From: Bacteroidota bacterium
GTDB taxonomy: Bacteria > Bacteroidota > Bacteroidia > UBA8524
Direction: 5' to 3'
Length of the DNA stretch: 64,000 nt
Assembly: GCA_008933805.1 (NCBI GenBank)
Contig: WBUH01000002.1
Coordinates: 27,443 to 91,442, forward strand
The first letter of the stretch is position 1. Each line of letters starts with the position of its first letter. The notes beneath the pieces were generated by a model. The model saw only the letters and a list, made by a program, of their open reading frames with translations, ran no database searches and was not told where the DNA came from. The position numbers and the translations under genes were made by a program. Shown here piece by piece: positions 40,270-62,515 of the stretch.

Positions 40270-41034
40270 ATGAATTTGTTTTATAAGCAGTATAGCCAAA
40301 CAGGCAAGCCTTTGTTTATTTTTCATGGGTTATTCGGGATGTTGGATAATTGGCACAACGTAGCCCAACAACTGGCTGCCGATTATGCCGTTTATACTGT
40401 TGATTTGCGCAACCACGGGCAATCGCCGCACAGTGATGAGATGAATTACAGTTTGATGGCTGACGATATTGCGCAATTACTGGTATCGCTTAAATACGAA
40501 AAGGCTCACATACTTGGGCACAGCATGGGGGGAAAAGCGGTGATGACGTTTGCGCTTAAATACCCTGCAATGATTGATAAACTGATTGTGGCCGATATAG
40601 GTGTGAAAGAATATAAGCGCGGCCACGATGATATTTTTGATGCTATTATTCCGCTGAAACTTGAAACGTTTGAAACCCGCGGCGATATTGACCGACACCT
40701 TACTCCACTATTGCCTGAGTTTAGTACCCGCCAGTTTATTCTTAAAAACCTTGCCCGCAATGCTGATGGCGGTTTTTATTGGAAAATGAACGTTGAGTCT
40801 ATCTATAAAAACTACGAAAATATAGTAGGGCCCATCAAGTCGGCCAAGCCGTATATGGGAGAAACAATGTTTTTGCGGGGAGGAAACTCGAAATACGTAA
40901 CCGATGAGGACTGGACTGATATTCAAACCCTTTTCCCCAACGCAAAACTAAGCACTATTGAAGGTGCCGGTCACTGGGTGCACGCTGAAAACCCTGCCGC
41001 AGTTGTTGCCTATGTGAAAGAGTTTTTGAGCTGA
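40270..41034 (+). CDS. Alpha/beta-fold hydrolase
   Basis: 254 aa. Nucleophile elbow GHSMGG. Oxyanion region HGLFG. Confidence 0.8.
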   Translation: MNLFYKQYSQTGKPLFIFHGLFGMLDNWHNVAQQLAADYAVYTVDLRNHGQSPHSDEMNYSLMADDIAQLLVSLKYEKAHILGHSMGGKAVMTFALKYPAMIDKLIVADIGVKEYKRGHDDIFDAIIPLKLETFETRGDIDRHLTPLLPEFSTRQFILKNLARNADGGFYWKMNVESIYKNYENIVGPIKSAKPYMGETMFLRGGNSKYVTDEDWTDIQTLFPNAKLSTIEGAGHWVHAENPAAVVAYVKEFLS

Positions 41035-41046
41035 TAAAATAGTTAC

Positions 41047-41145
41047 GACGGATTAAAATCCGTCGCTCCTAAGATTACAAAGCGTGGAGGGACTTAAGTC
41101 CCTCCACGCTTTGTAATTTTTACAGAATAGGATTTCAATCCTATT
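41047..41145. repeat. Three consecutive intergenic hairpins (family 1, family 2, plus one more)
   Basis: gacggattaaaatccgtc at 41047-41064. attacaaagcgtggaggGACTTAAGTCcctccacgctttgtaat at 41074-41117 (19-bp stem). aataggatttcaatcctatt at 41126-41145. Confidence 0.75.
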
Positions 41146-41281
41146 AAACACGACAGTCTTTACATTCTCCTTTCCTACGGAAAAAGAAATGTTATATTTC
41201 CGTTAACATTTGCAAAGTTGAGCCACCCTTTACAACTCAAAAAAGAATAAGCGCGTTTATCAAAGTACAATCGTCAAACCT

Positions 41282-44200
41282 ATGAAAAATCTCAAAGCAC
41301 TGCTGTGGGTTATCACGGCAATAGTAGCTGTTCCTTTTACAGTAAAGGGGCAAGCTCCCACTATTGAAGGCAGCGAATATTCATACTTGTACAAGCTTGA
41401 AAAAGAACAAGTACGCTGGATGCTCGACAGTGCTTGGCTAAGCGATAAAAGCCCCATACTAACGGCACCTGTAGATAGCTCATTACGCATCAACAACAGC
41501 AATCCGTTTGTGCCTAAGAAGCTGGCAAGAGGCTACTATTTATCCGCCTACGCTGCTGATTTAACCATTAATGCTCAGTTGCACATTCACCAACCGTTTT
41601 TTCCTACCATACAAGAAACCAACGGGGTGTGGTGGTTTGTGTTTAAAGATACCCTGCAAAGCATTGTGAAGGGCGGTACGCTTACCATGATTGGCAGCAA
41701 AGAGAAAGACAGTGTAATTGGTTACGATTCGTCGTGTATGTGCTATCCTGTGCCGCTGCAAAAGCAAGACCGCTGGTTTTTGTTTGAAAAGGGTACAGAG
41801 TTTTATTACCTGAAAGTATATTCTCCCTACAAAAAAGTAAAACGCGATTGTACCCGCCCATGGTGGAAATTTTGGAAAAAATGCCGCCCTGCATACAGCG
41901 ATTATAACAACTACAATTACAGATACCGCCCAAGAGGATGGCGCAGGTTATTAAACTGGGCATCGGATGTTTTTAGCCGCCCTGCAACCCCCATGCAGCT
42001 TAACCCGGGTTATATGGTGATTAACCAGCCTGAGTACAAACACTTTGATTCACTAAAGATGAAAGCTTTTATAGTGAACAAAAAGGGCAAGCCGCTTAAG
42101 AAGGATTTGTATGTAAAAATTACAACGCAGTCCAACTTCTACCAGCCGCTGCTATTCAAAAAAATATCGCCGGTTACACGGGGAGCTTATACGTTTGATA
42201 TGGCGATACCCGACAGTTTCCTGCTCGACCAAACGTATCTAATTTCTATTACCGATAAGTTGGGGAGAAGCTATAAATCAAGCCAATTTAAAGTAGCCGA
42301 TTACGAACTTAAAAAGGTGAGCTACAGTTGGGAAAACGGTTCGCCCGAATATTACCGAGGTAATGATATTGTTTTTTACGCTAAATCAGTTGATGCAAAC
42401 AACCTGCCCCTGCCCGATGCCACAGTGCGGTTACGATTGAGGATAGACCAAGTATTAGCTACATACGACACCTTGATAGCCTTGCGCGATAGTGTGTTTA
42501 CTTCGTGGTACGATACCCTGTTGGCGTGCAGCCCTGATGGGTTAACACCGATACACTTGCCGCAACACCTGTTGCCCAATGCTGATTTGAGAATTTTTGG
42601 TACCATGAATTTTACCAATGCAGATAACCAACCCGGTTTTGCACAATGGCAATTCAATATTCTAGCCGACTCTAAACGATTTTTTGTAAAAGAAGATAGT
42701 AACGGTTTAAGAGCAGGGTATGTAGTACAAGGCCGCATACAAAAAGAAATTCCGGCGTATTGGGTGGTTGAATATACTACAGGCGTTAGAACGGAAAAGA
42801 AAATCACTCTGCCGTATTACCAAGATTGGGAGCCCGGGGCTACATTGTATCGTTTGTTAGATTCAGGCAGACGCGAGATAAGCTCGATTGCTATGCCCCG
42901 CCAAATACCCAAACCGCCTGCATTTATCGTTACCAAAACTTACGACTCGCTGCACATTGATTTGCAAAACCCTTTGGGCATTGAGGTGGGTTGGCGCATC
43001 TTATCAGGCAAAAAGCTGATTGAAAAAGGTGCGGGTAACAGCCTATCGTACCATAAAAAACTAAAAGGCACTAAGCCTGTGTATGTGGCATATACCTACA
43101 CTTGGGGAGGCAATTTATTTACCTACGAAACCATTGCTTGGGTGAAGGAAAAACAGTTGACGGTGAAAATTGAACAACCCGAAGTTGTTTACCCCGGACA
43201 AGAAATTGCCGTTGATATTACGGTTACCGATTATAAAAACAGGGGTGCAAGTGGAGTGAATCTTACCGCATACAGCGTAAACATGGAGTTTGAGAACATT
43301 CCCTACCCACAAATGCCCTATTATGGTAAAAACTACGGCGGGCAGTTGGTTAAGAAGCCCATCAACAACATGAGTTTGTGGGAGAAAAGCTACAACTATA
43401 CGTTGCCCTGCAATCCGTATCTGTACAAATGGATGGGCTTGGCAAGCCATCCCTACTACCGTTTGATGTATAGCCCAACAGCATTGGGTATTTTAAAAGA
43501 CAGCCTATCCGACGGGAAAACCCAGTTAAGCCTGTTTGCAAGAAACTCAAACACCAACTACAAAAACTACTATGCTGCTTGGATTGACGATACCTTGGCG
43601 TATTTGAGCCTGAGCGGACAAGAACCCAATGCCTACCGAGTGAAACCCGGCAAGCACAAAATAACCTTGCGCACGTATGAGGGATTGTATGAAACAGATA
43701 GTATTGAATGCACGGCAGGAATGCGCACCCTTGTAGGGCTTAATACGGATAGTATTTATAACAACCGTACCATTAAACGTACTGAGATGTTGAAGGAGGT
43801 GAGAAAAGAAGAGTACGGGTTGTACCAGCCTCATGTATTGTACATCACCGGAGATAAAAACTCCATGTATGGAGATAATCTTTCAAGGGGATACCTAAGA
43901 CAGGGGGATAAAATTTACAACATCGGCAGGTTACAAAAATCATACACATACGGGCACAACGATAACCTTAAAAACAATCCGTACTACTTTTACAAAGTAG
44001 GGCCGTTTGAAAAGGGGTGGATAGATTTGATTATTGACCAACGGGTAATAACGTTCTTCTTTAATCCAGAGTATGTTTATACTTATTCAACAGTAGCGGT
44101 AATGTCGTCAGATGTGAATTACGACGACTTTAAACCGCAACCACTGCCCTCTTTCTACAGCTTTGCAGATACCGCTACCGAACTACCGCCGCCACCGCCC

Positions 44201-47200
44201 GAAGAGCCTAAAGTAAATATTATTCCAACTTACGCTTCAACCAATCCCTTGCAGCACCCCGGTATGCGTACCTATTACCACCCGTATTGGGTGGGCAAAG
44301 GTTGTTTTTATCGCGTATCCAATAGTAAAGATAACCGTATCATGAACTGGTGGTTTATTAATAACGACAGTCTCGAAATGTCGACCGTAGTAGCATGGCA
44401 AACAGGTGTTATAAACCCGCACTTAGTCCCCGGCAATTACGATATAGTAATGCTAACTGATACCAACAGTTTTAAACTGCTGCGCAATGTGCAGGTGCTG
44501 GATAGTTTTATTGTGTATTACAACCCCACCGACGAAGGCTTTATGAAATACGATACCCTTTTGATGTGGAGTTACCTTACCAAAATAAAACTTATAAACA
44601 GAGGGCCTGTACCCGAATATTACAACACCCCTGTGAAGTTAAAGGTAACTACTGATAATGAACCCGCTAAGGGGGCAGAAAAAGTAGTAGGTGAATTGAG
44701 TCTCAACAGCCGATACATAAGCAATGCCCTGATAGTGATTGAAGACGGTAAAGGCGGTTTTATAAACGGAGGGCTTACCAATCAGTTCGGGTTTTATCAA
44801 ATACCGCTGAAACCGGGAACGTATTATATGAAAATATTTACCCCTCAGTGGGATATGTTTCATGTAGAGAAACTTACGGTAACTGCAAAGAAAAATACCA
44901 TAGCCCACCTACACATTGGCAATTACAGCCCCGAAGTATTGGCAAGAAACTTTAACAATCTTCCCCGTTCACAAACCAGCGAAAAGCTAACCAATAACGG
45001 TACACAACCTAAGTATGAAAACACATCAACAGGAAACTGTTTTGGCAACAATTGCGGGGAAGTAAAGGGTATTATTTCCGACGCTGCAACGGGTGAACCT
45101 TTGGTAGGGGCAACAGTAATGATAGAAAGTAATAGCATAGCTACAGCTACCGGTATAGACGGTGATTACCGCATAAAAGGATTATCGGCAGGAACATACA
45201 CCCTTGTAGTGAGGTACGTAGGGTATCAAACCCAAAAGGTTATGAATGTGAATGTTGGTACCGGTGCAACTACTTTTTTAAACATTGAGTTAAGAGAGAA
45301 TGTTAGTGAAGTGGGTGAGGTGATTGTGACAGAAAGAGCAAGAATGCCCGTTGTTAAAGGCGATGAAATGAGTTACAATAGCGAAAGATATTATTCAGCT
45401 ACATCTCCGATGATGAATGAAAGTGTAACGACGATGGATGTTGTAACCACTACTTCAAAAAGCAAGAGAAGAAAAACATTAAACAGTCCTGATTTTAGTG
45501 ATGGTGAAGAACAAGGCTACGAAGAGGAATACAATCCTTTTAGGGGTAATGCCTTAGCCGATAGTACTGAAGTAAACTGGGTTGACAGGCAAAAAGAAGC
45601 ACAACGCCTGCAAGGAATGCTGGGGGATAGCAATGCCCTTTTGGTACGCAAAACCTTCCGCGATTACGGGTATTGGATACCCAATCTGCTTACTAACCGC
45701 AAGGGCAAAGCGGGCTTCACCGTAAAACTACCCGATAACCAAACCCAATGGAAATCATTTGTGCCAGCCATGGACGGTAAACGCCGTACGGGTTTGGGAA
45801 CAGCTACCATAAAAGCCTACAAGCCGTTAACGGCCAACCTTTCAGTACCCCGTGTAATGGTTGCAGGCGACCGCTTAGAGATTACAGGAAAAACAGTAAA
45901 CTATACATCAGACTCGGTAGTGGTGAATGCCTTGTTGCGTGTAAACGATAAAGATTTGTATAACAACCCGATGGGGTTGCGCTATTACCAACTGGTACAG
46001 CAGTTTTTAGAACCCATTAAGGCCGGAGAAACCGTAGTACAATACAGCATTAAGATGGACAACGGTTACCTTGACGGCGAAATACGCAATGTACCCGTGT
46101 TAGAAAACGGCTTATTGGTAAACAACGGCGAAAGTCAAACCCTTGACGGCAATTTAGAGCGTACCCTTTACCCCGAAGAGGGTTTTATCAACCGCGAGTT
46201 GATGGTGAGTAACCGAAAAGTGGTATTGCTGGAGGCAGAGTTGAATAAACTGCGCAACTATCAATACGGTTGTGTGGAGCAAACGGCATCAAAGCTAAAA
46301 GCCTTGTTGCTTGAAAAGCAGTTTGCAAAAGCACTGAACAAACCGTTTACGGATGAAAAAGAAATCAGCCAGTGCGTAAAACGCCTTGAAAAATTCCAAA
46401 ACACCGACGGATCATGGGGATGGTGGAGTCGCACCCTTACCGATTACTGGATGACAATTTATGCCACTGATGCACTGCAACGCGCCGTTAAAGCAGGGTA
46501 TAAAACACAAAGTGCGCTTACAGGAGCACAACATTTATGGGGTGTGTATCAATTTTTGGCCATCCCGCATAAAATCAATTCGTTAGAACTGTTTATTAAT
46601 GGCGGGTTTGGCTCGGTAGCTGATAAAATTGCAAAACTGGATACTCTTAACCTTAACCTGCAAGAACGTTATGCACTGATGAAAGCGAAACAAGCTTCGG
46701 GTATAAAAATTAATACCAAACCTTTGCTGGAAGCAGTGCGCTTACCTAATGAAAAACAGGCTGTGTGGGGCGAGAAAGTATTTAGTATTTCAGTAAACGA
46801 GTTGCAAACTTCTGCCGTTGTGTATGAAATTTTGAGAAAAGAAGGCGGCCATGATGAATTACTGAAAAAAGTGCGTAATTACTTCTTATCGCAGCCTCAT
46901 ACTTCAAGAAACACCATCGAGTCGGCCACCGTGTTGCAAACGTTTATGCAGGATATTGTTACAGAGGATAACAAACGCGAGGAGTTGATACCCGATTTCA
47001 GCATCAACGGAAAAGCAACCCCTTTACCCCTTGCCATGAAAATAGCTCCGGCTGATACTGTAAAGCTGGCTAAAAAGGGCAGTGAGTTGTTTTACGTGTA
47101 CTCGTGGCAACAATTTGAGGCCAATCCGGATGCTCGTACTCAAATATTTGATATACGGACTTCGTTTGAACAAAACAAACGCATGACAGATACTTTGCAG

Positions 47201-47518
47201 GTGGGTAAACCTGTTACCATGCACATCAGCATGACAATTGATAAAGAGCGTGAGTATGTGATGCTGGAAATACCTATCCCCGCAGGGTTTTCATACCAAA
47301 GCAAAACACCCGGTTATGCATACGAACAACACCGTGAACATTTTGACGACAAGGTGGCTATTTTCTTTGGCAAGTTGCCCCGCGGTTTGTATAGCTTTAA
47401 AGTAGAATTACTTCCTAAGTTTAAAGGACAAGTAACTTTATTACCTGCCCGTGCAGAAGAGATGTACTTCCCGCTTCACTTTGGCAACAACGCCAAACGC
47501 ACCATAGTGGTTGAATAG
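41282..47518 (+). CDS. Alpha-2-macroglobulin family giant protein (MG-domain/thioester type), secreted
   Basis: 2078 aa with a signal peptide. Thioester-type motif YQYGCVEQT (canonical CxEQ) about 450 aa from the C-terminus. Embedded carboxypeptidase-regulatory-like beta-sandwich (GIISDAATGEPLVGATVMIE...YTLVVRYVGYQTQ). Confidence 0.72.
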   Translation: MKNLKALLWVITAIVAVPFTVKGQAPTIEGSEYSYLYKLEKEQVRWMLDSAWLSDKSPILTAPVDSSLRINNSNPFVPKKLARGYYLSAYAADLTINAQLHIHQPFFPTIQETNGVWWFVFKDTLQSIVKGGTLTMIGSKEKDSVIGYDSSCMCYPVPLQKQDRWFLFEKGTEFYYLKVYSPYKKVKRDCTRPWWKFWKKCRPAYSDYNNYNYRYRPRGWRRLLNWASDVFSRPATPMQLNPGYMVINQPEYKHFDSLKMKAFIVNKKGKPLKKDLYVKITTQSNFYQPLLFKKISPVTRGAYTFDMAIPDSFLLDQTYLISITDKLGRSYKSSQFKVADYELKKVSYSWENGSPEYYRGNDIVFYAKSVDANNLPLPDATVRLRLRIDQVLATYDTLIALRDSVFTSWYDTLLACSPDGLTPIHLPQHLLPNADLRIFGTMNFTNADNQPGFAQWQFNILADSKRFFVKEDSNGLRAGYVVQGRIQKEIPAYWVVEYTTGVRTEKKITLPYYQDWEPGATLYRLLDSGRREISSIAMPRQIPKPPAFIVTKTYDSLHIDLQNPLGIEVGWRILSGKKLIEKGAGNSLSYHKKLKGTKPVYVAYTYTWGGNLFTYETIAWVKEKQLTVKIEQPEVVYPGQEIAVDITVTDYKNRGASGVNLTAYSVNMEFENIPYPQMPYYGKNYGGQLVKKPINNMSLWEKSYNYTLPCNPYLYKWMGLASHPYYRLMYSPTALGILKDSLSDGKTQLSLFARNSNTNYKNYYAAWIDDTLAYLSLSGQEPNAYRVKPGKHKITLRTYEGLYETDSIECTAGMRTLVGLNTDSIYNNRTIKRTEMLKEVRKEEYGLYQPHVLYITGDKNSMYGDNLSRGYLRQGDKIYNIGRLQKSYTYGHNDNLKNNPYYFYKVGPFEKGWIDLIIDQRVITFFFNPEYVYTYSTVAVMSSDVNYDDFKPQPLPSFYSFADTATELPPPPPEEPKVNIIPTYASTNPLQHPGMRTYYHPYWVGKGCFYRVSNSKDNRIMNWWFINNDSLEMSTVVAWQTGVINPHLVPGNYDIVMLTDTNSFKLLRNVQVLDSFIVYYNPTDEGFMKYDTLLMWSYLTKIKLINRGPVPEYYNTPVKLKVTTDNEPAKGAEKVVGELSLNSRYISNALIVIEDGKGGFINGGLTNQFGFYQIPLKPGTYYMKIFTPQWDMFHVEKLTVTAKKNTIAHLHIGNYSPEVLARNFNNLPRSQTSEKLTNNGTQPKYENTSTGNCFGNNCGEVKGIISDAATGEPLVGATVMIESNSIATATGIDGDYRIKGLSAGTYTLVVRYVGYQTQKVMNVNVGTGATTFLNIELRENVSEVGEVIVTERARMPVVKGDEMSYNSERYYSATSPMMNESVTTMDVVTTTSKSKRRKTLNSPDFSDGEEQGYEEEYNPFRGNALADSTEVNWVDRQKEAQRLQGMLGDSNALLVRKTFRDYGYWIPNLLTNRKGKAGFTVKLPDNQTQWKSFVPAMDGKRRTGLGTATIKAYKPLTANLSVPRVMVAGDRLEITGKTVNYTSDSVVVNALLRVNDKDLYNNPMGLRYYQLVQQFLEPIKAGETVVQYSIKMDNGYLDGEIRNVPVLENGLLVNNGESQTLDGNLERTLYPEEGFINRELMVSNRKVVLLEAELNKLRNYQYGCVEQTASKLKALLLEKQFAKALNKPFTDEKEISQCVKRLEKFQNTDGSWGWWSRTLTDYWMTIYATDALQRAVKAGYKTQSALTGAQHLWGVYQFLAIPHKINSLELFINGGFGSVADKIAKLDTLNLNLQERYALMKAKQASGIKINTKPLLEAVRLPNEKQAVWGEKVFSISVNELQTSAVVYEILRKEGGHDELLKKVRNYFLSQPHTSRNTIESATVLQTFMQDIVTEDNKREELIPDFSINGKATPLPLAMKIAPADTVKLAKKGSELFYVYSWQQFEANPDARTQIFDIRTSFEQNKRMTDTLQVGKPVTMHISMTIDKEREYVMLEIPIPAGFSYQSKTPGYAYEQHREHFDDKVAIFFGKLPRGLYSFKVELLPKFKGQVTLLPARAEEMYFPLHFGNNAKRTIVVE

Positions 47519-47560
47519 GTTGAGTTAAAAGAAAAACCAAACGTTAACAAGGTGTATGAG

Positions 47561-47650
47561 GCCGTCATTCCCTCGAAAGAGGGAATCCGTGGGTGGGTGG
47601 CACTGTTGATTAAGTCAACCGCACAGATTCCCATTTAAAATGGGAATGAC
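47561..47650. repeat. Three nested or tandem hairpins sharing ATTCCC...GGGAAT arms, in the intergenic region after the A2M gene
   Basis: attccctc gaaa gagggaat at 47567-47586. gttgattaagtcaac at 47605-47619. attcccatttaaaatgggaat at 47627-47647. Outer complement gtcatt/aatgac. G-run gtgggtgggtgg between the hairpins. Confidence 0.6.
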
Positions 47651-47785
47651 TGACAGCCGCACACAGCAATAATAATTAGGGCTGACTTTCCCTTATTCCT
47701 AACTCGAAATAAAAGCGTCATAAAACAACATCGCCTTCCCTAATTATTTAGAGAAGGCGATTTTGTTATAACTACGCGGAGTGAA

Positions 47786-48613
47786 TTACATAAAACGGCG
47801 GCGAACCATATCGGCCAGTTCAAGAAACAGTTTGTTTTCCTCGTCCCAGCTAAACTCACGTTTCAGGTTTCTAAAGAAAGTATCTGCTTCATTTCCGTTC
47901 GTTAGCCCATTTATATAGTGTATTGACTTCGCATAAGCTTCGTGGTCGCCTTTAAAAAGTTGGTTAATAAACTCAAACTTCTTATTAATGCTAATTGCCT
48001 TCTTTAAATCGTGTATCGGGGTTTGCTGCAACTTAGATACCAAGTCATTACCCTCAGGGGCAGTTTGCAAACGGTCGTTCAGCGAAGGCTCATTCACCAG
48101 CTTATTCACAGGCTGTGCAACAGGAGCGGGTGGGGGAGTTACTGGAGGCACAGGAACAACAGGTGCAATAGGAGTTTCAACAACCACAGGGGGAGCAACG
48201 GGCGCAACAGGCTCTTGTACTTTTGGTGTCTCAACCACGGGAGCTTCAACAACTATGGGCTTCACAGGAACTTCAAAAACTGGCGGTGGCGGAACAGGTT
48301 GTTCAACCTTAGGCATGGGCGCATCAATTTTTGGAGGAGCAGGTTCTACAAATGGAGTAGTTACCGGCTCTTTTACCGGAGCAGGAGGAGGAACGGGAAC
48401 AGTAACAACAGGCGCGCTAAATTCAGCAACCTTTGTATTAGTATCAGCACTGTTTAATTCTAAAACAGCGTCGTACAACTCAATCGTGTACTTGCGCAAA
48501 AGGTCAATATCTAATGGATTAAGGGACGATTTTTGTGCAAAACCGTTATTAAGGTCGGTAATCTTGGCCGTTAATTGTTGAATTTTGTCGTGCAGTTCAG
48601 TCCTATTGCTCAT
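47786..48613 (-). CDS. Hypothetical protein with a central Pro/Val-rich low-complexity region
   Basis: 275 aa with conserved-looking N- and C-terminal globular parts. The middle is (P/V/A/E)-rich repeats. The antisense-strand ORFs at 47988-48581 are mirror artefacts. Confidence 0.5.
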   Translation of the reverse strand: MSNRTELHDKIQQLTAKITDLNNGFAQKSSLNPLDIDLLRKYTIELYDAVLELNSADTNTKVAEFSAPVVTVPVPPPAPVKEPVTTPFVEPAPPKIDAPMPKVEQPVPPPPVFEVPVKPIVVEAPVVETPKVQEPVAPVAPPVVVETPIAPVVPVPPVTPPPAPVAQPVNKLVNEPSLNDRLQTAPEGNDLVSKLQQTPIHDLKKAISINKKFEFINQLFKGDHEAYAKSIHYINGLTNGNEADTFFRNLKREFSWDEENKLFLELADMVRRRFM

Positions 48614-48734
48614 TTTAAATTATTTTGCGCTTCAAATATAGCCCCGCTTTGTGAGGCAAATGTTATAAAGCATGGGTAAGTATTGCACGTGGCAATGTGT
48701 ATAATTATAAAACCGTTAAAAGGCTCAGTATAGT

Positions 48735-49313
48735 ATGTTTATAGAACCCACCGGAAACAGGGGCAGACAAAAAGGATGGATAGAGGTAGTGTGCGGTTGT
48801 ATGTTCAGCGGTAAAACCGAGGAGCTGATACGTCGTCTCAAAAGGGCGAGGTTTGCCCACCAGCGGGTAGAGATTTTTAAACCGATGACGGATGTGCGCT
48901 ACCACGAGCAAAACATCGTCTCACACGATGCTAGTGAGATTCGTTCTACTCCCGTTGATTCTTCCCTTAATATCTTATTGATGGCGGGTGATGCCGAGGT
49001 GATTGGTATTGACGAGGCCCAGTTTTTTGATAACGAGTTACCCAACGTTTGTGCCGAGATGGCTGCACGCGGCATTAGGGTAATAGTGGCAGGATTGGAC
49101 ATGGATTATAGAGGTCAGCCTTTTGGACCCATGCCAAATTTGATGGCAAAAGCTGAGTTTGTAACCAAAGTACACGCTATATGTATGAAGTGCGGTGATT
49201 TGGCCACCCACTCATTCCGTACCACCCACCAAACCGACCAAGTTTTGCTGGGTGAAAAAGAAAGCTACGAACCCCGTTGCCGTCGCTGCTTTAATGAAGA
49301 TTTTAAACCTTGA
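48735..49313 (+). CDS. tdk: Thymidine kinase
   Basis: 192 aa. P-loop [12 protein letters not shown]-terminal zinc ribbon CMKCG...CRRC. Confidence 0.9.
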
Positions 49314-49466
49314 TTTTCAATAGCACAGGATTTCATGTCCTGCGACACCGTGTGCCCAGTTCAGTGTCTATTTATAAACAATTGCCAATGGCAGTAAACC
49401 AAATTTAACTTTGGTTTGTTAATATTGAAGATTGATTTACTATTCATTATTTAAACATAAATAACA

Positions 49467-50063
49467 ATGGCTTTTGAATTACCCGCACTAGACTATGCAT
49501 ACAATGCGCTTGAACCGCACATTGATGCACGCACAATGGAAATACACCATAGCAAACACCACCAAGCATACGTTACCAACCTTAATAATGCTATCGCCGG
49601 AACTGATGCAGAAGGTTTGAGCATTGAAGATATTTGCCGCAACATCAGCAAATATGCTCCTGCCGTTCGCAACAACGGTGGTGGTCATTACAACCACAGC
49701 CTGTTTTGGAATATCATGGCCCCCGGCAAAGGCGGCGTTCCTACAGGTGCTTTAGGCGATGCTATCACCAGCACTTTTGGTTCTTTTGATGCATTTAAAG
49801 AAAAATTTGCCGCTGCTGCTGCTACCCGTTTTGGTAGCGGATGGGCTTGGTTGATTAAAAATGCCGAAGGTAAGCTTGAAGTAACCAGCACCCCTAACCA
49901 AGATAATCCTTTGATGGACATTGCCGACGTAAAAGGCACTCCGTTGTTGGGTATCGACGTATGGGAACACGCGTATTACCTTAACTACCAAAACCGCCGC
50001 CCTGATTACGTAGCAGCATTTTGGAATGTAATTAACTGGGATGCCGTAGCGGCTCGCTTTTAA
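49467..50063 (+). CDS. Fe/Mn superoxide dismutase
   Basis: 198 aa. [28 protein letters not shown], and the metal ligands in DVWEHAYY. Confidence 0.9.
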
Positions 50064-50109: not shown

Positions 50110-50469
50110 TTATTTTAAACTGTTTATCCATTTGGCAATAGCCAGTGCATCTTCTTGCGGTAAACGTTGGGGCAGCATCGGGGGGTAGCCCGGCCAGTTT
50201 TCAGGCTTGGGGTTATACATCAAACTCACCATTTGCTCATCAGTGTATCCTTTTTTAGCAACCTCATTAAAAGCAGGCCCTACTAATTTTTCACTTGGCT
50301 TATGGCAGGTAAGGCAAGTATGTTCGTCAAGCTTGGCTTGTATATCAGCAGGCGGCTCAATGGTGACTGTTTGCTGTGTGGCTTGTTCAGTACTTTGTGC
50401 GGGTTTCTTTTCATTTCCGCAGGCAGTCATTGCAAACCCTGCAATCATAAGAATCACGTAGTTTTTCAT
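50110..50469 (-). CDS. Class I c-type cytochrome, lipoprotein
   Basis: 119 aa. Lipobox MTACG. Single CLTCH haem site and a distal Met. Confidence 0.75.
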   Translation of the reverse strand: MKNYVILMIAGFAMTACGNEKKPAQSTEQATQQTVTIEPPADIQAKLDEHTCLTCHKPSEKLVGPAFNEVAKKGYTDEQMVSLMYNPKPENWPGYPPMLPQRLPQEDALAIAKWINSLK

Positions 50470-50564
50470 ACACTCAAAAATTTCAGCGAAAATAAAGGCT
50501 TGCTGTATGAAACACTACAAAACTTTACCGATAGGAAAAACAAAAGGCTAAAGCGTTGACGGTA

Positions 50565-50662
50565 ACTTTTGGGTGGGACACTTGGGACACTCGTTTTTAA
50601 ATTCTATCAAATTGATTTTAAATTGTTTATGTGTTGTAAAGTTGTCCCATTTACGTGGGACA
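50565..50662. promoter_or_regulatory. Cluster of GGGACA direct repeats and a TGTCCCA-N6-TGGGACA palindrome (candidate operator)
   Basis: gggtgggacacttgggacac at 50561-50580. tgtcccatttacgtgggacaaagtgggaca at 50633-50662. A further copy, tttgggacacc, sits at 52443-52453 at the edge of repeat copy B. Confidence 0.45.
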
Positions 50663-50872
50663 AAGTGGGACAGTTGTATGGCCCAGTTACGGTGTTATTT
50701 AGTTACGCGGTTATCGTGTTATTTTTGTTACGCACCGCGCAGGGGCTTGCGAAGTTCTACAAAGCAAAGGCAGTTTCAGGAGGTCAAAGAACTAGGCTGG
50801 ATAGTTTGTAATTGGAAACGGGTATAAATGAAGACTGGGCTTGCTCAAAAGTAAGGGGTTGAAAACTCTACT

Positions 50873-50926
50873 GTTACAATTACCTTTTTATGAAGGACTT
50901 AAGTCCTTCACAAAAAGGTAATTACA
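50873..50926. repeat. Family-2 hairpin element (TTACAA-stem-GACTTAAGTC-stem-TTGTAA)
   Basis: ttacaattacctttttatgaag GACTTAAGTC cttcacaaaaaggtaattacaa. Confidence 0.7.
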
Positions 50927-50986
50927 AAAGCGATAGGTTTTAACCTGTCGGGTTAGAAAAACACCGCAACACTCATATTTGATGCA

Positions 50987-51280
50987 CCCCGCTCCCATAA
51001 GTCTCTCCAGCAAACTGTGCAACAGCGACTTGTAAAAGCAAAAATACATCCTTTGTTAGGAAGGTAGCAACTATCAACGGCCATGTGCGCGGCTCCCCTC
51101 CTTGTGGAGGCTGAGCAAAGGACAAGGAGGGGTTGGGGGAGGTAGCATTAAACACAGCTTACCCCGCTCTCCCAAGTCTCTGCCTTCGGCTATGCAATAG
51201 GGGCTTGTAAGCCAAAGTTAAAATAAGCTTGTAACGTATTATTCACTTATAAAGTTGCAGTTTTATACGCAGGTGATAAT
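50987..51280. repeat. Composite repeat copy A: U1-U2-U1'-T
   Basis: Aligned by eye to copies B, C and D. U1 is ccccgctcccataagtctctccagcaaactgtgcaacagcgacttgtaa. U2 is the ~125-bp GC-rich unit containing ggccatgtgcgcggctcccctccttgtggaggctgagcaaagga(a/c)aaggaggggttgggggagg. The T tail is gccaaag(t/a)taaaataag(c/t)ttgtaacgtatt.... Confidence 0.8.
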
Positions 51281-51408
51281 TGAAATACTACCAGTTATCC
51301 AGCCCACTGTAGTAACGGTTACAAATACAGCCCATGTTTGTTGTGAAATTTGTAGGCACGGCTCATACTTCAAATTCCTTTCTCTATGTTACATACTTAG
51401 GCTATTTG

Positions 51409-51453
51409 CCCTCACAAGTCCCTGCCACTACAAGCCAAGCTACTGACTTGCGA
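51409..51453. repeat. Degenerate U1-like copy overlapping the 3' end of small ORF X1
   Basis: ccctcacaagtccctgccactacaagccaagctactgacttgcga compared with the U1 consensus. Confidence 0.5.
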
Positions 51454-51765
51454 GAGCGGCTTATTGTAAAAATTATTGGACTCTGCACCTCTAAAAACAA
51501 ACATCATTAGAATAATATTAATTGCAATTAAAAAATTCAAAATACTGATTATATAAGACCAGTTTCTACTCTTAACAACAACAAAACTTAAAAAACTAGT
51601 AATTACCATCCAAAGGGTAAATCCAATAAAATAAATTGCATCTCCTAAACCATAACCAAGATTGTAGTCAAAGAAACTAAAACTAATAAAGAAAAGACTA
51701 TATACTACAGCATAAAAAAAGAATGTTTTCTTCTTTATGTCTTTAATAATATCAGATTTTATCAT
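51412..51765 (-). CDS. Hypothetical small polytopic membrane protein (X1), AT-rich
   Basis: 117 aa, 3-4 hydrophobic segments, very AT-rich codons, no recognisable family. The 3' end overlaps the degenerate U1 repeat, so the true stop or extent is uncertain. Confidence 0.4.
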   Translation of the reverse strand: MIKSDIIKDIKKKTFFFYAVVYSLFFISFSFFDYNLGYGLGDAIYFIGFTLWMVITSFLSFVVVKSRNWSYIISILNFLIAINIILMMFVFRGAESNNFYNKPLSQVSSLACSGRDL

Positions 51766-51984
51766 TTTTTTGAGAGATTACTAATTTAGTTAAATAACCA
51801 TTGTCAGTTGTTTTTTAATTAATTCTGGATGATCAACATCAAATGAATATACATCTAACCACCAAATCCATTTATATAAGAATCAGACAGATCAATTAAT
51901 GTAGTTGTACGTAAATATTTGCCATCATCCCCATGACAATTAAATTCGGCCTGCTAATCCTCCTTGAACGCCGTCAATATTGTT

Positions 51985-52453
51985 CCACCCGTTCTCGTAA
52001 GTCTGTCGTAGGCAATGCACGGCAGGAACTTGTAAGAACAAAAATACATCCTTTGTTAGGAAGGTAGCAACTACAAACGGCCATGTGCGCGGCTCTCCTC
52101 CTTGTAGAGGTTGCGCAAAGGAAAAGGAGGGGTTGGGGGAGGTCGCAAAAACAAGGATCACCCCATTCTCCCAAGCCTCTACCGCAAACTGTGCAACAGC
52201 GACTTGTGAGAACAAAAATACATCCTTTGTTAGGAAGGTAGCAACTATCAACGGCCATGTGCGCGGCTCCCCTCCTTGTGGAGGCTGAGCAAAGGAAAAG
52301 GAGGGGTTGGGGGAGGTCGCAAAAACACGGCTCACCCCGTTCTCTCAAGTCCCCACCGCAAACTGTGCAACAGCGACTTGTAAGCCAAAGATAAAATAAG
52401 TTTGTAACGTATTCTTCACTTATAAAGTTGCAGTTTCATACGAAGGGGATAAT
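51985..52453. repeat. Composite repeat copy B: U1''-U2-U1-U2-U1-T (2.3 tandem units of ~175 bp)
   Basis: Two near-identical U2 units (52036-52161 and 52210-52336) separated by U1 copies. The T tail at 52384-52453 ends in tttgggacacc. Confidence 0.85.
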
Positions 52454-52470
52454 TTGGGACACCATCTGAA

Positions 52471-53091
52471 CTACCGATATAATCCCAAAAGATTTAATAA
52501 CGATGTTGCAAAAGATTTAAATTGTTTTTCAAAAAAAACAAACAGCTTTTCGTATTTGAAATAGTATATAAGCGATAACACAAATATTAATAAAATATAC
52601 AGTCGGTAGAAAAAAGTTCCTTTGTAAGGTAAATCAAACAACAAAGCTCCAAGAATAAAAATTGATGAAAAAACACCAAAAAAGAAACAAGAATAATTAA
52701 AGATAGATTGAGTGATTTCCAAATAAAAAGAATTTTCCTGCTCGAACTGGTCTTTTGAGTATTTTTTTAAAAGTAACATACAATAATAGCTTTTAAACCT
52801 TCTTTTAGTTTCAAAATAACATTTTGACATAATAGCTAAACAGAATGACATTTCTTTATAATCAAACTGTTCCGCTAATAGCATTAGTCGTCTGCTATTT
52901 GTACAATACTCCAATGCTTTTTGATACTTACATTTTTTATAATAGCTAAAACCCAAAATATTCAGCATATCAACCCTCTGCAATAAATTGACTCGCTGAG
53001 AGACCTCCATTTTTGAAACTGAATTAATTATTGCATCATACTCCTTATTCTCAAAATTTTCTATTATAGTTTCGAAGAGGTTCAATTTCAT
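52471..53091 (-). CDS. Hypothetical protein (X2): soluble alpha-helical N-domain plus two C-terminal TM helices, AT-rich
   Basis: 206 aa, no recognisable family. The start lies ~38 nt downstream (gene strand) of the reverse complement of repeat copy C. Confidence 0.4.
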   Translation of the reverse strand: MKLNLFETIIENFENKEYDAIINSVSKMEVSQRVNLLQRVDMLNILGFSYYKKCKYQKALEYCTNSRRLMLLAEQFDYKEMSFCLAIMSKCYFETKRRFKSYYCMLLLKKYSKDQFEQENSFYLEITQSIFNYSCFFFGVFSSIFILGALLFDLPYKGTFFYRLYILLIFVLSLIYYFKYEKLFVFFEKQFKSFATSLLNLLGLYR

Positions 53092-53129
53092 AACTATTTA
53101 TTTGATTTTCGTACCAACTGGTAAAATAG

Positions 53130-53250
53130 CCCCTGCTCCCATAAGTCTCTCCAGCAAGCTGTGCAACAGCTACTTGTAAGCCAAAGATAAAATAAGTTTG
53201 TAACGTATTCTTCTCAGCTAAAGTAACGGTTTATACGCTGAGGATAACCT
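53130..53250. repeat. Composite repeat copy C: U1-T (no U2)
   Basis: cccctgctcccataagtctctccagcaagctgtgcaacagctacttgtaa followed by gccaaagataaaataagtttgtaacgtattcttc.... Confidence 0.8.
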
Positions 53251-53310
53251 TGAACACATCTCTTAAACAAAACACATTGTATGTTTACATTCGATTTCAT
53301 TTCCTTTGAA

Positions 53311-53691
53311 TTAATTTGGATGATAGAATGTGAATTTATAAATCTCGTTTTTTGCTTTGATAACAAATAAAGTGTCAGAAAACGCGGGTTTGTAAACACT
53401 ATCATTTGGCTGTGCCAAATCATCAAAAAAAACACTTTTCCCATTTGTAGAGACAACATATGGATGAAAATAATACTTCGTAACACTATTTTTTAAAGAT
53501 ATTACTTGCATTTTTTCTCGATACTCAATATAGGAGATTAGTCCACTTAATTCTGTTGAATCAAAAAAATCAAAATGTTTTTTTAGTCTTCGGTTATTAA
53601 GATTGTTTACCAACAGATATCCCATTATTAAACAAAAAATAATCAGGGCTTTAACTTTAAATTTTTTTTCTTTTGTTCTTATTAAAATCAT
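53311..53691 (-). CDS. Hypothetical N-terminally membrane-anchored small protein (X3), AT-rich
   Basis: 126 aa. The N-terminal KALIIFCLIMGYLLV is a TM anchor, followed by a ~90-aa soluble domain. No recognisable family. Confidence 0.4.
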   Translation of the reverse strand: MILIRTKEKKFKVKALIIFCLIMGYLLVNNLNNRRLKKHFDFFDSTELSGLISYIEYREKMQVISLKNSVTKYYFHPYVVSTNGKSVFFDDLAQPNDSVYKPAFSDTLFVIKAKNEIYKFTFYHPN

Positions 53692-53712
53692 GTATTAAAA
53701 ACGCATTGGAAA

Positions 53713-53790
53713 CTCCCCAACTCCCACAAGCCTCTCCCGTAAATTGTAAAGCAGGGGCTTGTGCGTGGGAGATAAAATTGGGTTAAAGCT
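53713..53790. repeat. Degenerate repeat copy D (U1'-like plus T-like), immediately 5' of X3 on the gene strand
   Basis: ccccaactcccacaagcctctcccgtaaattgtaaagcaggggcttgtg, then cgtgggagataaaattgggttaaagc (compare T: aagccaaagataaaataagtttgtaacg). Confidence 0.55.
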
Positions 53791-53801
53791 ATATTATGTT
53801 C

Positions 53802-55766
53802 TTACTCCCTCACAAACTTAGTAACACCCTTGTACCCGTTGCCTTGCACTTGAATAAAGTAAATACCTGCGGGCAAATCAGCGATAGGTAACGTATTAGT
53901 ACCATTTTCAATGGCAAAGGTACGTACCACTTGTCCCACAAGGTTCATAAGGCTGCCCTTAAGAGCAGGGCCGTTAAAGCCGGCGGGAGCAATGGTAAGT
54001 TCAGTTGTAGCAGGGTTGGGGTACACAGCCAGTTGCAAGTTCGTTTCAGCCAATTGGTCTATCCCCGCGGGGAAGGTAATATCCGTACTGTCAAACATCC
54101 CTTGGCTCAAATTATAATACGTACCCGATGGAGTAGTCTCCTTTTTCACCGCACGCACCATATATACGTTGTGGCCTTGCAAAGGGTCATTGTCAACAAA
54201 GCTAGTACCGTTTACCAACGTAAGATTGACCTTCACATACTTGCCGTACAAATGCGGGGCGCGGTACACGTGGTAGCCCACCACATTAGCATCGGTAGAG
54301 GCCGTCCAGCTTACCGTTACCTTTTTTGTACCCGTTTCAACAGCGTCAATAGTAGTAGGGGCTAACGCTACGTGCATACGCAGGGTAGGGTCGCCCATCA
54401 GCGCAATGTGTATCAAGCGTTGCGAGCCGTTAAAGTTTCCTTCATACAATGTGCCGTTTTCGTTTTGGGTAAGTCGCGCACCGTATCCGATACATTCGCC
54501 CAATGCCATGTGGTGCAATGCCCAGTTGGGAATACCGCCCCAAAAACTTGCCAGTATCGAAGGTTTTGAAGCCAATGCAGCACGCAACAAAGCATCTTGG
54601 ATGTCCCAATCGCCAAAATAACTGCCTGCCAGCGAGGTGAAAATGGTTTTAATGCTATCCGCAGCAAACTGTGCGGTGTTGATTACTCCGCCGCAAGACG
54701 AGTACCAACCGCCGCCGCAAGCCCCGCTCCATAAATACCAGTCTTTTTTCAAATCAGCATTGTAGTCAACGCCGTTGTTCACATTGTCTACAATGTTTGC
54801 AGAGCCCACCATGGGCGCAAAGTTTCGCCAGTTTGACGAAGCAATTGTAAACGATTGAAAATTATCGTCAATCAACGCCCTTGCAGGGGCAGTAAGCTGT
54901 CCAATGCGGTAGCTGTGGTTTTTTTGCAGGTAGTAACGCAGCAACGCCGTATCACTTTGTCCCGCAAAAGCAGGCAAGCGAGAAAGGTCAACGCGGCCTA
55001 CCATTAAATCCACATCGCTATCAAACTGGCTGGCATCAAACTTACCATCACCGGGTTGGTTTTTATTCTCAGCCCTTGATGCCGACGAAGTACTTACAAT
55101 ATTATCCGTCCACAAACCATCTACATCACCGTAATACCCGTCGCAAGGCCAAGCCCCCGAATGGTCGGGGTGTCCGTCAGGGTATATACTCCCTGAATAG
55201 GGGACAGGTACTCTTCCCAACAGAAACACGGCTTTCACATTAGGTACAGTCTTTATTTTATCCCTAACCGCCGTAACTGCATCGGTACGTTCAGTGATAA
55301 TGCGTTGCACTTGCCAGCCGTCACCAATCAAATCTTTTTCAAGCATGGCAATTTCGGTGGCCAGCGGTTGCAAATAATTATTATCAATCACAAGCGCAAG
55401 CGTGCCGTGCTGTTCTTCGACAGCATGGTTTATACCGGCATACACACTGCCCAGTGCGCCCGTGCTTCCGCCTTCTTTAAATACCAAATACTCGTAGGCT
55501 TGACCCACGGTAACCGCATTATCGGTATAAGTACTGTCGCCCGTGCCAAGGTTAGCATACACATTGCCCCAGTCCTTATCTTCCTTCGCTTTTCTAAACA
55601 CCCGTATGCGGGTAGCATCAGTAAACTTTGGAAATTTAAGGGTAATAGCAGCCGGACTTTCGCTTACCGTTGCCGTAACCAACACCGAACGGTTTTTATT
55701 GAATTGTGCCGTTACAGCCGTTGAAACAAGAAATAGAAGTGAGGTAACGAGTAGAGTTTTTTTCAT
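53802..55766 (-). CDS. T9SS C-terminal-sorting-domain secreted protein of unknown function (possibly a cysteine-peptidase-like or adhesin-like cargo)
   Basis: Start trimmed to MKKTLLVTSLLFLVSTAVTAQ (signal peptide). The track's N-terminal extension to 55946 runs into the hairpin cluster. The C-terminus is LAVYPNPATTELTI...GIYFIQVQGNGYKGVTKFVRE, a type-A T9SS sorting domain. The Cys-containing central region is unassigned. Confidence 0.55.
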   Translation of the reverse strand: MKKTLLVTSLLFLVSTAVTAQFNKNRSVLVTATVSESPAAITLKFPKFTDATRIRVFRKAKEDKDWGNVYANLGTGDSTYTDNAVTVGQAYEYLVFKEGGSTGALGSVYAGINHAVEEQHGTLALVIDNNYLQPLATEIAMLEKDLIGDGWQVQRIITERTDAVTAVRDKIKTVPNVKAVFLLGRVPVPYSGSIYPDGHPDHSGAWPCDGYYGDVDGLWTDNIVSTSSASRAENKNQPGDGKFDASQFDSDVDLMVGRVDLSRLPAFAGQSDTALLRYYLQKNHSYRIGQLTAPARALIDDNFQSFTIASSNWRNFAPMVGSANIVDNVNNGVDYNADLKKDWYLWSGACGGGWYSSCGGVINTAQFAADSIKTIFTSLAGSYFGDWDIQDALLRAALASKPSILASFWGGIPNWALHHMALGECIGYGARLTQNENGTLYEGNFNGSQRLIHIALMGDPTLRMHVALAPTTIDAVETGTKKVTVSWTASTDANVVGYHVYRAPHLYGKYVKVNLTLVNGTSFVDNDPLQGHNVYMVRAVKKETTPSGTYYNLSQGMFDSTDITFPAGIDQLAETNLQLAVYPNPATTELTIAPAGFNGPALKGSLMNLVGQVVRTFAIENGTNTLPIADLPAGIYFIQVQGNGYKGVTKFVRE

Positions 55767-55844
55767 CAATTGTATAATTGGCTTTAAGAAGCAAGTTATA
55801 TAATTTAGAATAAAAACGGTGTGGCAAACATCATCAACGCAATA

Positions 55845-56181
55845 GCAGCAGGTTTTATACCTGCTGTGATGTGAGGATACAACAGCGACGGGTTTTACAC
55901 CCGTCGGCAAGAATGGTTTCATACCCTTTGCAAAACGGGTTCTCAATAGCGACGGGTTTCATACCCGTCGTAATAGGTAGGATAACAACGATGGGTTTTA
56001 CACCCATCGGTCAGAAAAGGTTTCATTCCCGCCATTAATACCCTGAATATAAAATTCAGGTCTTTTATGTGTAACGTTCCGAATGGTCTTAAACCATTCG
56101 GAACGAATCATTGCAAAACAGCGACGGGTTTTATACCCGTCGTAATAGGAGGGATAATAACGATGGGTTTTATACCCATCG
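55845..56181. repeat. Cluster of 8 family-1 hairpin repeats (GG-TTTYAHA-CC loop core with covarying stems), BIME-like
   Basis: gcagcaggttttatacctgctg. cgacgggttttacacccgtcg. cgacgggtttcatacccgtcg. cgatgggttttacacccatcg. ctgaatataaaattcag. cgttccgaatggtcttaaaccattcggaacg. cgacgggttttatacccgtcg. cgatgggttttatacccatcg. A ~55-bp doublet (gacggg hairpin, taatagg-gggataa spacer, gatggg hairpin) occurs twice. Confidence 0.85.
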
Positions 56182-56205
56182 ACCAAAATAAGGTTTCAAA
56201 CAGCC

Positions 56206-61968: not shown

Positions 61969-62318
61969 AGACTTAAGTCTGCCTTCGGCTTTTTAACTGT
62001 ATAAGCAGCTAACGTTGCGAATGGTTTTAAACCATTCGCAACGAACCCTTGCAAAAGAGACGGGCTTTATGCCCGTCGGGGGTTGGACGGAATAAAGCCC
62101 ATTGTTATTTTGGGTTTAAAAACCCCACTATTACAATTACCAATCGAGAGATGACTTAAGTCCTCTCTCGCATTGTAATCACAAAAGAGACGGATTTTAA
62201 TCCGTCGCAGCAAAAAATACCCTTGCGCTTTAAAAACAACAGATTAAAACCTGTTGAACCGACTGATACAAAACGTTGTCTTGCGTTAAGACATTCCGAA
62301 TGATTTTAAACCATTTGG
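61969..62318. repeat. Intergenic cluster mixing both hairpin families (about 7 hairpins), starting with a bidirectional terminator
   Basis: aaaaagccgaaggcaGACTTAAGTCtgccttcggcttttt at 61965-62005. gcgaatggttttaaaccattcgc at 62037-62059. gacgggctttatgcccgtc at 62079-62097. gggtttaaaaaccc. ttacaattaccaatcgagagatGACTTAAGTCctctctcgcattgtaat at 62151-62199. gacggattttaatccgtc at 62209-62226. ccgaatgattttaaaccatttgg at 62296-62318. Confidence 0.8.
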
Positions 62319-62515
62319 GATGTTGCTGAATTAAACAGCTTACAAGTTTTGTAACCTGCCTCAAATACACTAAGAAGCAAAATAGTTGTTAATAGCGACT
62401 TAGTGTCTTCGTGGCAAAATAGTAAACTCCATCCGTGGACGTTATTTTGACTTTTTAGCCACTCCTTTTAACGTTAAAAAGTAGCAGGTTTCAACCAGTT
62501 GCATAAATTCGTAAC

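Follow-up and report, generated by a model that had tools for sequence, protein, structure and literature searches.

To our knowledge, the only well-defined systems in which bacteria stockpile single genes as cassettes are integrons and, more recently, recombinase-associated acquired interbacterial defense (rAID) arrays. Integrons are nearly absent from Bacteroidota. Here we describe an array of small, AT-rich genes and modular repeats in an uncultured Bacteroidota species, found in a 64,000-nt stretch of contig WBUH01000002.1 (assembly GCA_008933805.1; this whole stretch is henceforth termed the window). The array fills a 3.3-kb island bordered by a cytochrome c gene (50110–50469, minus strand) and the gene for a protein sorted by the type IX secretion system (T9SS; 53802–55766, minus strand, with a Por_Secre_tail domain). 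The closest described systems in the same phylum, rAID-1 arrays, have been defined by a XerD-like recombinase at the 5′ end, at least two co-oriented downstream genes, a GC content of at most 41%, and intergenic motifs "reminiscent of integrons".

The content of the array varies between strains, and arrays with the same conserved linkers and the same conserved terminal element, termed E, occupy several loci of the species. Low-GC, mostly orphan genes are held in these arrays as discrete units, with a palindromic repeat (U1) on their 5′ side and a short box, a hairpin and a further repeat (S-box, hairpin and T) on their 3′ side. With moderate confidence, we interpret the island as one site of a lineage-specific gene-cassette system that resembles integrons and rAID arrays and would be served in trans.

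Results

Comparison of the same locus in related assemblies reveals turnover of its content. Seven assemblies cover some part of the locus, six from the window's species and the seventh (L064; L numbers denote the loci compared) from a slightly more distant metagenome-assembled genome (MAG). In the five other same-species assemblies, the flanks, i.e., the T9SS gene, its stop codon and the cytochrome c gene, are kept at 95–97% identity. Four different gene sets lie between the same flanks, counting L064. Read from the T9SS gene towards the cytochrome c gene, the window carries X3, X2 and X1; L001, L062 and L063 share open reading frames (ORFs) of 132, 148 and 63 aa followed by a ParE toxin and antitoxin; L034 has ORFs of 135, 155, 359, 148 and 63 aa, again with ParE and antitoxin; and L064 contains ORFs of 175 and 240 aa. 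Relatives with a 62–70% identical T9SS protein lack both the array and E, and two cytochrome c genes follow the T9SS gene directly. Because these distant relatives are empty and the cargo differs within the species, the island is an insertion whose content turns over among strains, and completely so where the flanks are 96–97% identical. Similarity of the flanks ends exactly at the T9SS stop codon (53803) and returns within the last U1 (51004), and L001 and L034 split inside the loop of the first U1 to reconverge just after an S-box. Since the mapped breakpoints fall within U1 or just after an S-box, we infer that exchange probably occurs by recombination localized to the linkers.

These linkers are built from few parts. 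Seven copies of the 49-nt U1 core share one orientation (at 50987, 51162, 51987, 52161, 52335, 53131 and 53716), accompanied by three copies of U2 (ca. 125 nt), which builds 174-nt U2+U1 units, and three copies of T (ca. 71 nt) plus a degenerate one (Table 1). Along the minus strand, the series runs T-U1, X3, T-U1, X2, T-U1-(U2-U1)×2, X1 and, further on, T-U1-U2-U1, exactly the arrangement given in the initial annotation of the window, which had been made from the sequence alone. An nhmmer profile of U1 detects eight copies at 50982–53767; as the window has no copy in its other 60.7 kb, this clustering is far beyond chance. The eighth, inverted copy with its spacer M, the S-boxes after the stop codons and element E had all been overlooked before. 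Conservation of the linkers stops sharply at the GCGGGG tail of U1 and restarts directly after each stop codon with the S-box (consensus GTGTCCCAAATTATC, also GGTCGTGTCCCAAATTATCACC), placing the modules nearer to the stop codon of the upstream gene than the earlier term "leader" suggests.

Two types of linker can be distinguished. Single-ended linkers comprise the S-box, a terminator-like hairpin GTCCCGAGAAATCGGGA with a T-run, T with a palindrome TAAGTTRCAAACTTA, and U1. In the window they are extended by U2-U1 units, and the U2-containing linker between X2 and X1 recurs in L034 (2758–3059). TGTCCCA (in S) and GTAAC (in T) are each present once per linker; both motifs recur several times in E. 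Doublet linkers are U1′-M-U1 elements of ca. 228 bp, constant in length at nine sites, with perfect terminal inverted repeats (TIRs) of ca. 20 bp (CCCCCGCTCTCGCAAGTCTG ... CAGACTTGCGAGAGCGGGGG) and no coding capacity. The inverted U1 of the window together with M (51271–51460) corresponds to half of such a doublet and is 88% identical to L034 4984–5173.

To find these repeats elsewhere, a search pattern had to be built on the conserved U1 arms, as the U1 loops of the window are strain-specific: neither the window-specific U1 core in genomes nor the T-U1 junction in metagenomes gave a match. The census rests on loci fetched by this one U1 pattern, of whose matches ca. 13 of 17 in genomes and ca. 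one third in metagenomes were due to chance, as recognized by nhmmer finding no U1; such matches included unrelated taxa. The loci come from the same-species MAG GCA_943370295.1, the European Nucleotide Archive metagenome OFDN01 (nine contigs) and several Joint Genome Institute samples. In 20 loci nhmmer confirmed U1, always beside ORFs of 20–38% GC embedded in core DNA of 43–48% GC; core intergenic regions of the window and the ca. 20 loci contained no copy. Across at least six loci, these linkers stand between about 50 further ORFs of low GC content, and the ORFs led by U1 have a mean GC content of 30%. U1 leads an ORF start in 31 of 57 scorable copies, at a distance of 17–221 nt (median ca. 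50 nt); 20 copies are inverted and abut the 3′ end of an ORF, and the remaining 6 have no ORF nearby.

An all-against-all BLASTP comparison found the cassette ORFs of different arrays and alleles to be unrelated, except for X3 and one ORF of L005; the remaining matches among low-GC ORFs came from genes present twice because assemblies overlap, and from a pair of neighboring ORFs in L020. Two more orthologous loci combine conserved flanks with unrelated cargo (L018 versus L038 and L028; L012 versus L051). All arrays with a visible 5′ end begin directly at a core gene (Locus 1 in six assemblies, L018/L038, L005, L026 and L021), the units being stacked head to tail right behind its stop codon and in its orientation. 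Single-ended S-T-U1 linkers lie between nearly every pair of co-oriented ORFs, and their conservation has sharp edges at the ORF boundaries. The reading of the island as a cassette array, proposed in the initial annotation, is thus borne out by the same linkers around ca. 50 unrelated low-GC ORFs and by the four gene sets at its own locus. The annotation had named genome-wide repeats unlinked to small AT-rich ORFs as one observation that would speak against this reading; the repeats are dispersed, and always beside such ORFs. Searches of viral contigs with U1 and with an E segment returned no match, as did blastn of plasmids with E and U1, and we found no literature matching the U1 sequence or integron-like arrays in Bacteroidota. 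A single match of the TGTCCCA box in viral contigs was rejected as chance, since it lies inside a phage coding region.

The MAG GCA_943370295.1, which contributes L012, L018, L020 and L062 (CALRQL02...), is titled "Agrobacterium sp. 719_389". Its GC content is ca. 40%, in the stretches compared its core DNA and OFDN01 contigs from the species of the window are ca. 96–97% identical, and its T9SS protein shares a 90%-identity cluster with that of the window; by these sequence comparisons, the label appears to be wrong.

All arrays with a visible downstream end are closed by E, a non-coding element defined from an alignment of six sequences covering three loci (nhmmer E = 5e-84 in the window). 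Arrays at six or more loci of the species each have a single E, oriented like U1: besides the window, copies occur in L034, L062, L018, L028, L012, L051, L053 and L026, with partial ones in L035 and L064. E contains a short hairpin CGCAAGCCCCTGCGCG, six tandem 8-nt GTTAY boxes (50686–50735, plus-strand reading) and five TGTCCCA boxes (50574–50672), so that 5 of the 11 TGTCCCA sites of the window fall inside these 100 bp; for the GTTAY run, 3 overlapping matches were observed versus 0.11 expected. E-like GTAAC clusters of GTAACnnnGTAACnnnnGTAAC are present in other species.

U1 is a 55-nt imperfect palindrome in which 11-nt half-sites (TCTCACAAGTC and GACTTGCGAGA) enclose a variable centre of ca. 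24 nt, followed by the GCGGGG tail; its invariant columns read CAAG/CTTG. Stem pairing holds in 82% of cells, compared with 21–47% in slid controls. A covariation test was negative for U1, and RNAalifold predicted no structure. A stem maintained without covariation suggests that U1 is a site in DNA and not an RNA fold under selection. In pairwise comparisons of U1 copies for a fixed crossover point, both arms were conserved in all copies, and reassortments of 5′ and 3′ arms were anecdotal. Under Rfam 15, only tRNA-Cys passes its gathering threshold in the window; matches in the island have E values of 0.23–9, far below gathering scores.

These data also bear on the notion that the repeats are purely expression signals (promoter plus hairpin in the 5′ untranslated region, terminator, RNA stability) that were duplicated along with an amplified gene family and have no role in mobility. 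Such a function would agree with the 31 U1 copies upstream of ORF starts, with a TAnnTTTG-like −7 box in T of the window (TATCTTTG) and with the terminator-like hairpin and T-run behind the S-box in many linkers. We nonetheless consider it very improbable: the genes are mutually unrelated rather than members of a family, T copies elsewhere do not keep the −7 box, neither covariation nor a predicted RNA structure is present, 20 U1 copies sit inverted at ORF 3′ ends, and strain turnover and E would be left unexplained. The description of the repeats as a "structured leader" in the initial annotation is not established, given the same inverted copies and the missing covariation. T was also considered as a general Bacteroidetes promoter and rejected, as the TAnnTTTG box of the window copies is absent from most others.

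Most cargo genes defy identification, as no Pfam family matched about two thirds of the 53 low-GC ORFs; what can be named is typical of cassette arrays. Imm35, Colicin_immun and a toxin domain (Tox-MPTase2) were each found in 1 of the 53. Other cargo comprises ParE with its antitoxin, a CapP/CapH-like pair, RadC, DUF6843, tetratricopeptide repeat (TPR) proteins and a T9SS-sorted protein, and in L026 an AIPR/AbiU gene forms a single 589-aa cassette between U1 and E. A fragment of an IS1-family transposase (L012 21–527, DDE profile positions 6–51) stands in place of a cassette, immediately followed by an S-T-U1 linker. The idea that the arrays store immunity genes, raised in the initial annotation, receives some support for the arrays overall, by Imm35, Colicin_immun, Tox-MPTase2, ParE and Abi genes, and not for X1–X3, none of which matches an immunity family. 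The suggested link to the neighboring T9SS gene is not supported: its adjacency reflects the position of the array and not a toxin–immunity pairing.

We then asked what might mobilize the units. A Pfam scan of 28 ORFs in the window revealed no recombinase or Phage_integrase domain, and nine further window genes match core genes of a relative by synteny. Among the 25 most frequent of 87 Pfam families in 83 array-flanking ORFs, there was no recombinase and no Y1-transposase family of the kind associated with repetitive extragenic palindromes (REP-associated tyrosine transposases, RAYTs). No transposase is bracketed by U1, the truncated IS1 fragment being the sole transposase and itself cargo. 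The nearest recombinase is a 296-aa tyrosine-type protein (Phage_int_SAM_1 and Phage_integrase; L062 1–565 and L064 271–1161) encoded just past the right end of the window. Its gene adjoins rpsU (ribosomal protein S21) at a distance of ca. 10 kb and nine genes from the array, and it looks like a housekeeping Xer.

The absence of a recombinase at the arrays weighs on the proposal that they are orphan-immunity arrays of the rAID-1 type, with a XerD-like recombinase outside the sampled DNA. Short co-oriented genes, a GC content below 41% and repetitive intergenic motifs correspond to three published criteria for rAID-1, the phylum is shared, and Imm35, a colicin-immunity-like protein and a toxin fragment occur as cargo. 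However, the defining 5′ XerD-like recombinase is absent and the visible 5′ ends start directly at a core gene, a genome holds several arrays instead of one, and only a small part of the cargo can be identified as immunity genes, which renders this assignment improbable.

Hardly credible, in our view, is a remnant of a classical integron, that is, a cluster of attC sites lacking integron-integrases (CALIN), on which an IntI from another locus would act. The cassette architecture, the cargo rich in orphans and toxin–antitoxin genes, the hairpin repeats and the several integrase-less clusters per genome would all suit a CALIN. Against this, a regular-expression search of both strands of 50470–53800 for RYYYAAC...GTTRRRY pairs 50–150 nt apart found none, leaving the island without the R″/R′ box pair of attC sites, which the initial annotation had proposed to look for. 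The invariant positions of U1 are CAAG/CTTG and not AAC/GTT, no IntI gene was seen, and complete integrons are very rare in Bacteroidetes.

A more serious competitor, though still rather unlikely, is a passive hotspot in which AT-rich genes arrive by horizontal transfer and are swapped via conserved flanks by homologous recombination. The repeats would then be selfish: U1 and the ca. 228-bp doublets would resemble miniature inverted-repeat transposable elements (MITEs) or repetitive extragenic palindromes (REPs), mobilized by a transposase in trans and favoring dispensable AT-rich DNA, and E would be a regulatory element or terminator. The perfect TIRs and constant length of the doublets argue for this scenario, as do the occurrence of U1 in both orientations relative to ORFs, other families of intergenic hairpin repeats in the window, the array in L064 that lacks U1, and the truncated IS1 transposase inside one array. 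It is difficult to reconcile with the confinement of U1 to arrays (no copy in core intergenic regions of the window or the ca. 20 loci), the sharp-edged single-ended S-T-U1 linkers between nearly all co-oriented ORFs, the same E ending every array with fixed polarity, the start of arrays exactly at the stop codon of a core gene, and the absence of target-site duplications, none of which flanks any of 12 doublets.

These other hairpin-repeat families of the window are unrelated in sequence to U1 and lie at 55881–56188, 62010–62338 and 16868–16900. Among them are AACAGCGACGGGTTTTACACCCGTCGG (seven copies) and TAACGTTCCGAATGGTCTTAAACCATTCGGAACG (three copies), and they form a 172-nt tandem upstream of the T9SS gene and again near 62 kb. 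The palindrome between the last U1 and E (Table 1) has a 75%-identical relative 11 kb away (62112–62164), and contig L001 ends inside this palindrome.

Table 1. Features of the island, listed from the T9SS gene towards the cytochrome c gene (window coordinates; TM, transmembrane)
Feature	Position	Strand	Description
U1 copy 7	53712–53767	−	directly after T9SS stop codon, 24 nt upstream of X3; degenerate T 53765–53801
X3	53311–53691	−	126 aa, 26.5% GC, one TM-like segment (N-terminal), small β-barrel
X3/X2 linker	53127–53260	−	degenerate S-box 53240–53260, T 53180–53250, U1 copy 6 53127–53185
X2	52471–53091	−	206 aa, 27.2% GC, weak TPR match, two TM-like segments; orphan
X2/X1 linker	51982–52462	−	S-box GGTGTCCCAAATTATCC 52444–52462, T 52384–52454, then U1-U2-U1-U2-U1
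X2/X1 linker, U1 copies	52330–52389, 52156–52215, 51982–52041	−	
X1	51412–51765	−	117 aa as read, 28.5% GC, three TM-like segments by hydropathy
Inverted U1 (U1b) with spacer M	51271–51460	+	U1b 51406–51460, M ca. 115 nt; overlaps 3′ end of X1
Last linker	50982–51292	−	degenerate S-box 51272–51292, T 51211–51281, U1 51158–51216, U2, U1 50982–51041
Perfect-loop palindrome	50871–50930		60 nt, between last U1 and E; its unit has no ORF ("empty")
E	50566–50832	−	ca. 270 bp, conserved non-coding array end

X1, X2 and X3 are the only long ORFs of the island, all on the minus strand. GC contents computed for genes, island and window bear out the compositional break that had been estimated by eye: the three genes have 26.5–28.5% and the island 35.8%, versus 42.4% in the rest of the window, with the repeat blocks at 52–53%. 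Hydropathy agrees with the predicted membrane anchoring of all three proteins (Table 1). None scored above threshold against PADLOC, Pfam or NCBIfam, X2 giving only sub-threshold TPR and TssQ hints. The sole match of X2 in a search of 5.8e9 proteins is itself (F9K23_02485, from a MAG named Bacteroidetes bacterium), and X1 has one near-identical copy. The X1 homologue (P0272/L061, a 934-bp Logan contig) is 96% identical, 98 aa long and flanked by the same repeats. It stops with a TAG 5 nt ahead of the inverted U1 where the window has TAC, and hence the last 19 codons of X1 (51412–51468) represent read-through into this U1. X3 belongs to an uncharacterized family of ca. 120-aa proteins (196 cluster representatives at E < 1e-3, best match 63% identical) with conserved GDS and SDTL motifs, one member of which is present in the separate U1 array L005. 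Its AlphaFold2 model (pLDDT 93) predicts a long N-terminal helix and a small β-barrel, for which the PDB offered nothing better than E = 0.26. No recombinase or toxin was seen near more distant members of the X3 family in the contexts examined.

Several observations concern the neighborhood. The mechanical ORF of the T9SS gene spans 53802–55946 and begins at a TTG 60 codons upstream of the real start, which is placed at 55766 because of the signal peptide MKKTLLV and homologue lengths of 654–657 aa. A synteny break adjoins the array (window 33872–50063 versus L002 12870–19103), where a Ppx-M23-DUF4292-TPR-NTP_transferase-dUTPase block runs in the opposite direction from that in more distant relatives. 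The ca. 9.9 kb between the inverted block and the cytochrome c gene encode an abhydrolase, a 2078-aa alpha-2-macroglobulin, a 275-aa ORF, thymidine kinase and superoxide dismutase. The window lacks the first of the two cytochrome c genes that its relatives carry. In L034, a 38-nt segment (4941–4978) that abuts the inner end of an inverted U1 matches 5′ coding sequence of cytochrome c (window 50402–50439) at 95% identity and may be a relic of a disrupted second cytochrome c gene.

Discussion

If the island is one site of a lineage-specific cassette system, units would be inserted, excised and swapped through localized recombination at the linkers, by a recombinase that would be encoded elsewhere in the genome and recognize the U1, S and T boxes. 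E could play a part like that of attI, as a platform to which proteins bind, and the cassettes may be transcribed by read-through from the core gene ahead of them. The arrays would then constitute a reservoir of defence, immunity and toxin–antitoxin genes. A bolder version, which we put forward tentatively, is that of an undescribed capture system whose descent is separate from IntI integrons and XerD-linked rAID arrays, with a recombinase in trans that would insert self-contained AT-rich cassettes, bounded by a 55-nt hairpin site plus S-box, at several chromosomal sites each marked by E, and would thereby bring about the complete turnover of defence, immunity and orphan genes between strains of one species.

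A number of points weigh against a dedicated cassette system. The initial annotation had named a recombinase at one end of such arrays as support for the model; none adjoins an array with visible ends, and neither does a transposase, although no genome-wide recombinase search was made. We found no evidence of excised circles. Pairing in U1 is kept by sequence rather than covariation, and a folded-DNA substrate is therefore unsupported. The mapped breakpoints are few, and homologous recombination between linkers of ca. 170–230 bp could give the same pattern; at the doublets, target-site duplications are missing. E was looked at solely in loci reached via U1, and the L064 array has E without U1, which means that U1 is not indispensable. 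Finally, all sequences are MAGs or short-read assemblies, in which repeats might induce chimeric joins inside arrays; countering this concern, the architecture is the same in five independent assemblies and the content is the same in two pairs.

If the cassette interpretation is correct, the arrays represent a third cassette architecture, with multiple locations on a chromosome, a set of sites peculiar to it (U1, S, T and E) and no recombinase encoded in cis, and gene-cassette capture has evolved repeatedly. They would give a handle on strain-level gain and exchange of orphan, defence and immunity genes in environmental Bacteroidota. The conserved boxes provide probes for arrays and their cargo in metagenomes as well as baits for the recombinase.

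Comparison with known systems

The arrays share with integrons and CALINs tandem, mostly co-oriented, orphan-rich cassettes with species-specific palindromic repeats between them, strain-variable content, a cargo that includes toxin–antitoxin and anti-phage genes, and integrase-less clusters at several genomic sites. They differ in that U1 lacks the attC boxes and no IntI gene accompanies it, in the conserved platform E, which lies at the downstream end of the array instead of by an integrase at the upstream end, in their longer (170–480 nt) and modular linkers (S, hairpin, T, U1 and sometimes U2), and in beginning at the stop codon of a host gene. Like rAID-1, they occur in Bacteroidota and consist of co-oriented genes of 100–300 codons with at most 41% GC, repetitive intergenic motifs, and a cargo with some orphan immunity genes and toxin fragments. 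Unlike rAID-1, they lack the 5′ XerD-like recombinase at every visible end, number six or more per genome, carry mostly unidentifiable cargo whose identifiable part includes Abi, toxin–antitoxin and Cap-type genes, and end in E, none having been described for rAID; their host is environmental and does not belong to Bacteroidales.

The repeats invite comparison with mobile and dispersed elements. The non-coding U1′-M-U1 doublet of ca. 228 bp with its ca. 20-bp perfect TIRs resembles MITEs and mobile insertion cassettes (MICs), and some ORFs are bracketed by inverted U1 copies in the manner of MIC passenger genes. In contrast to these elements, there is no target-site duplication, no cognate transposase was found, and the doublets are confined to arrays; single-ended linkers and the asymmetric E are likewise unlike transposons. 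Short imperfect palindromes in modular intergenic mosaics are reminiscent of REPs and bacterial interspersed mosaic elements (BIMEs), and the inverted doublets of REP doublets forming hairpins (REPINs). REPs, however, are scattered by hundreds between core genes, whereas U1 lies only beside low-GC cassette ORFs, lacks the conserved GTAG-type 5′ tetranucleotide and has no RAYT gene in view. The pdif modules of Acinetobacter plasmids are set apart from these chromosomal arrays by a 6-nt dif spacer, compared with the ca. 24-nt centre of U1, and by the lack of sequence similarity between U1 and dif. Yet they, too, are small accessory modules, including toxin–antitoxin genes, delimited by short invertible recombination sites, and their recombinase is the housekeeping Xer (XerC/D) acting in trans.

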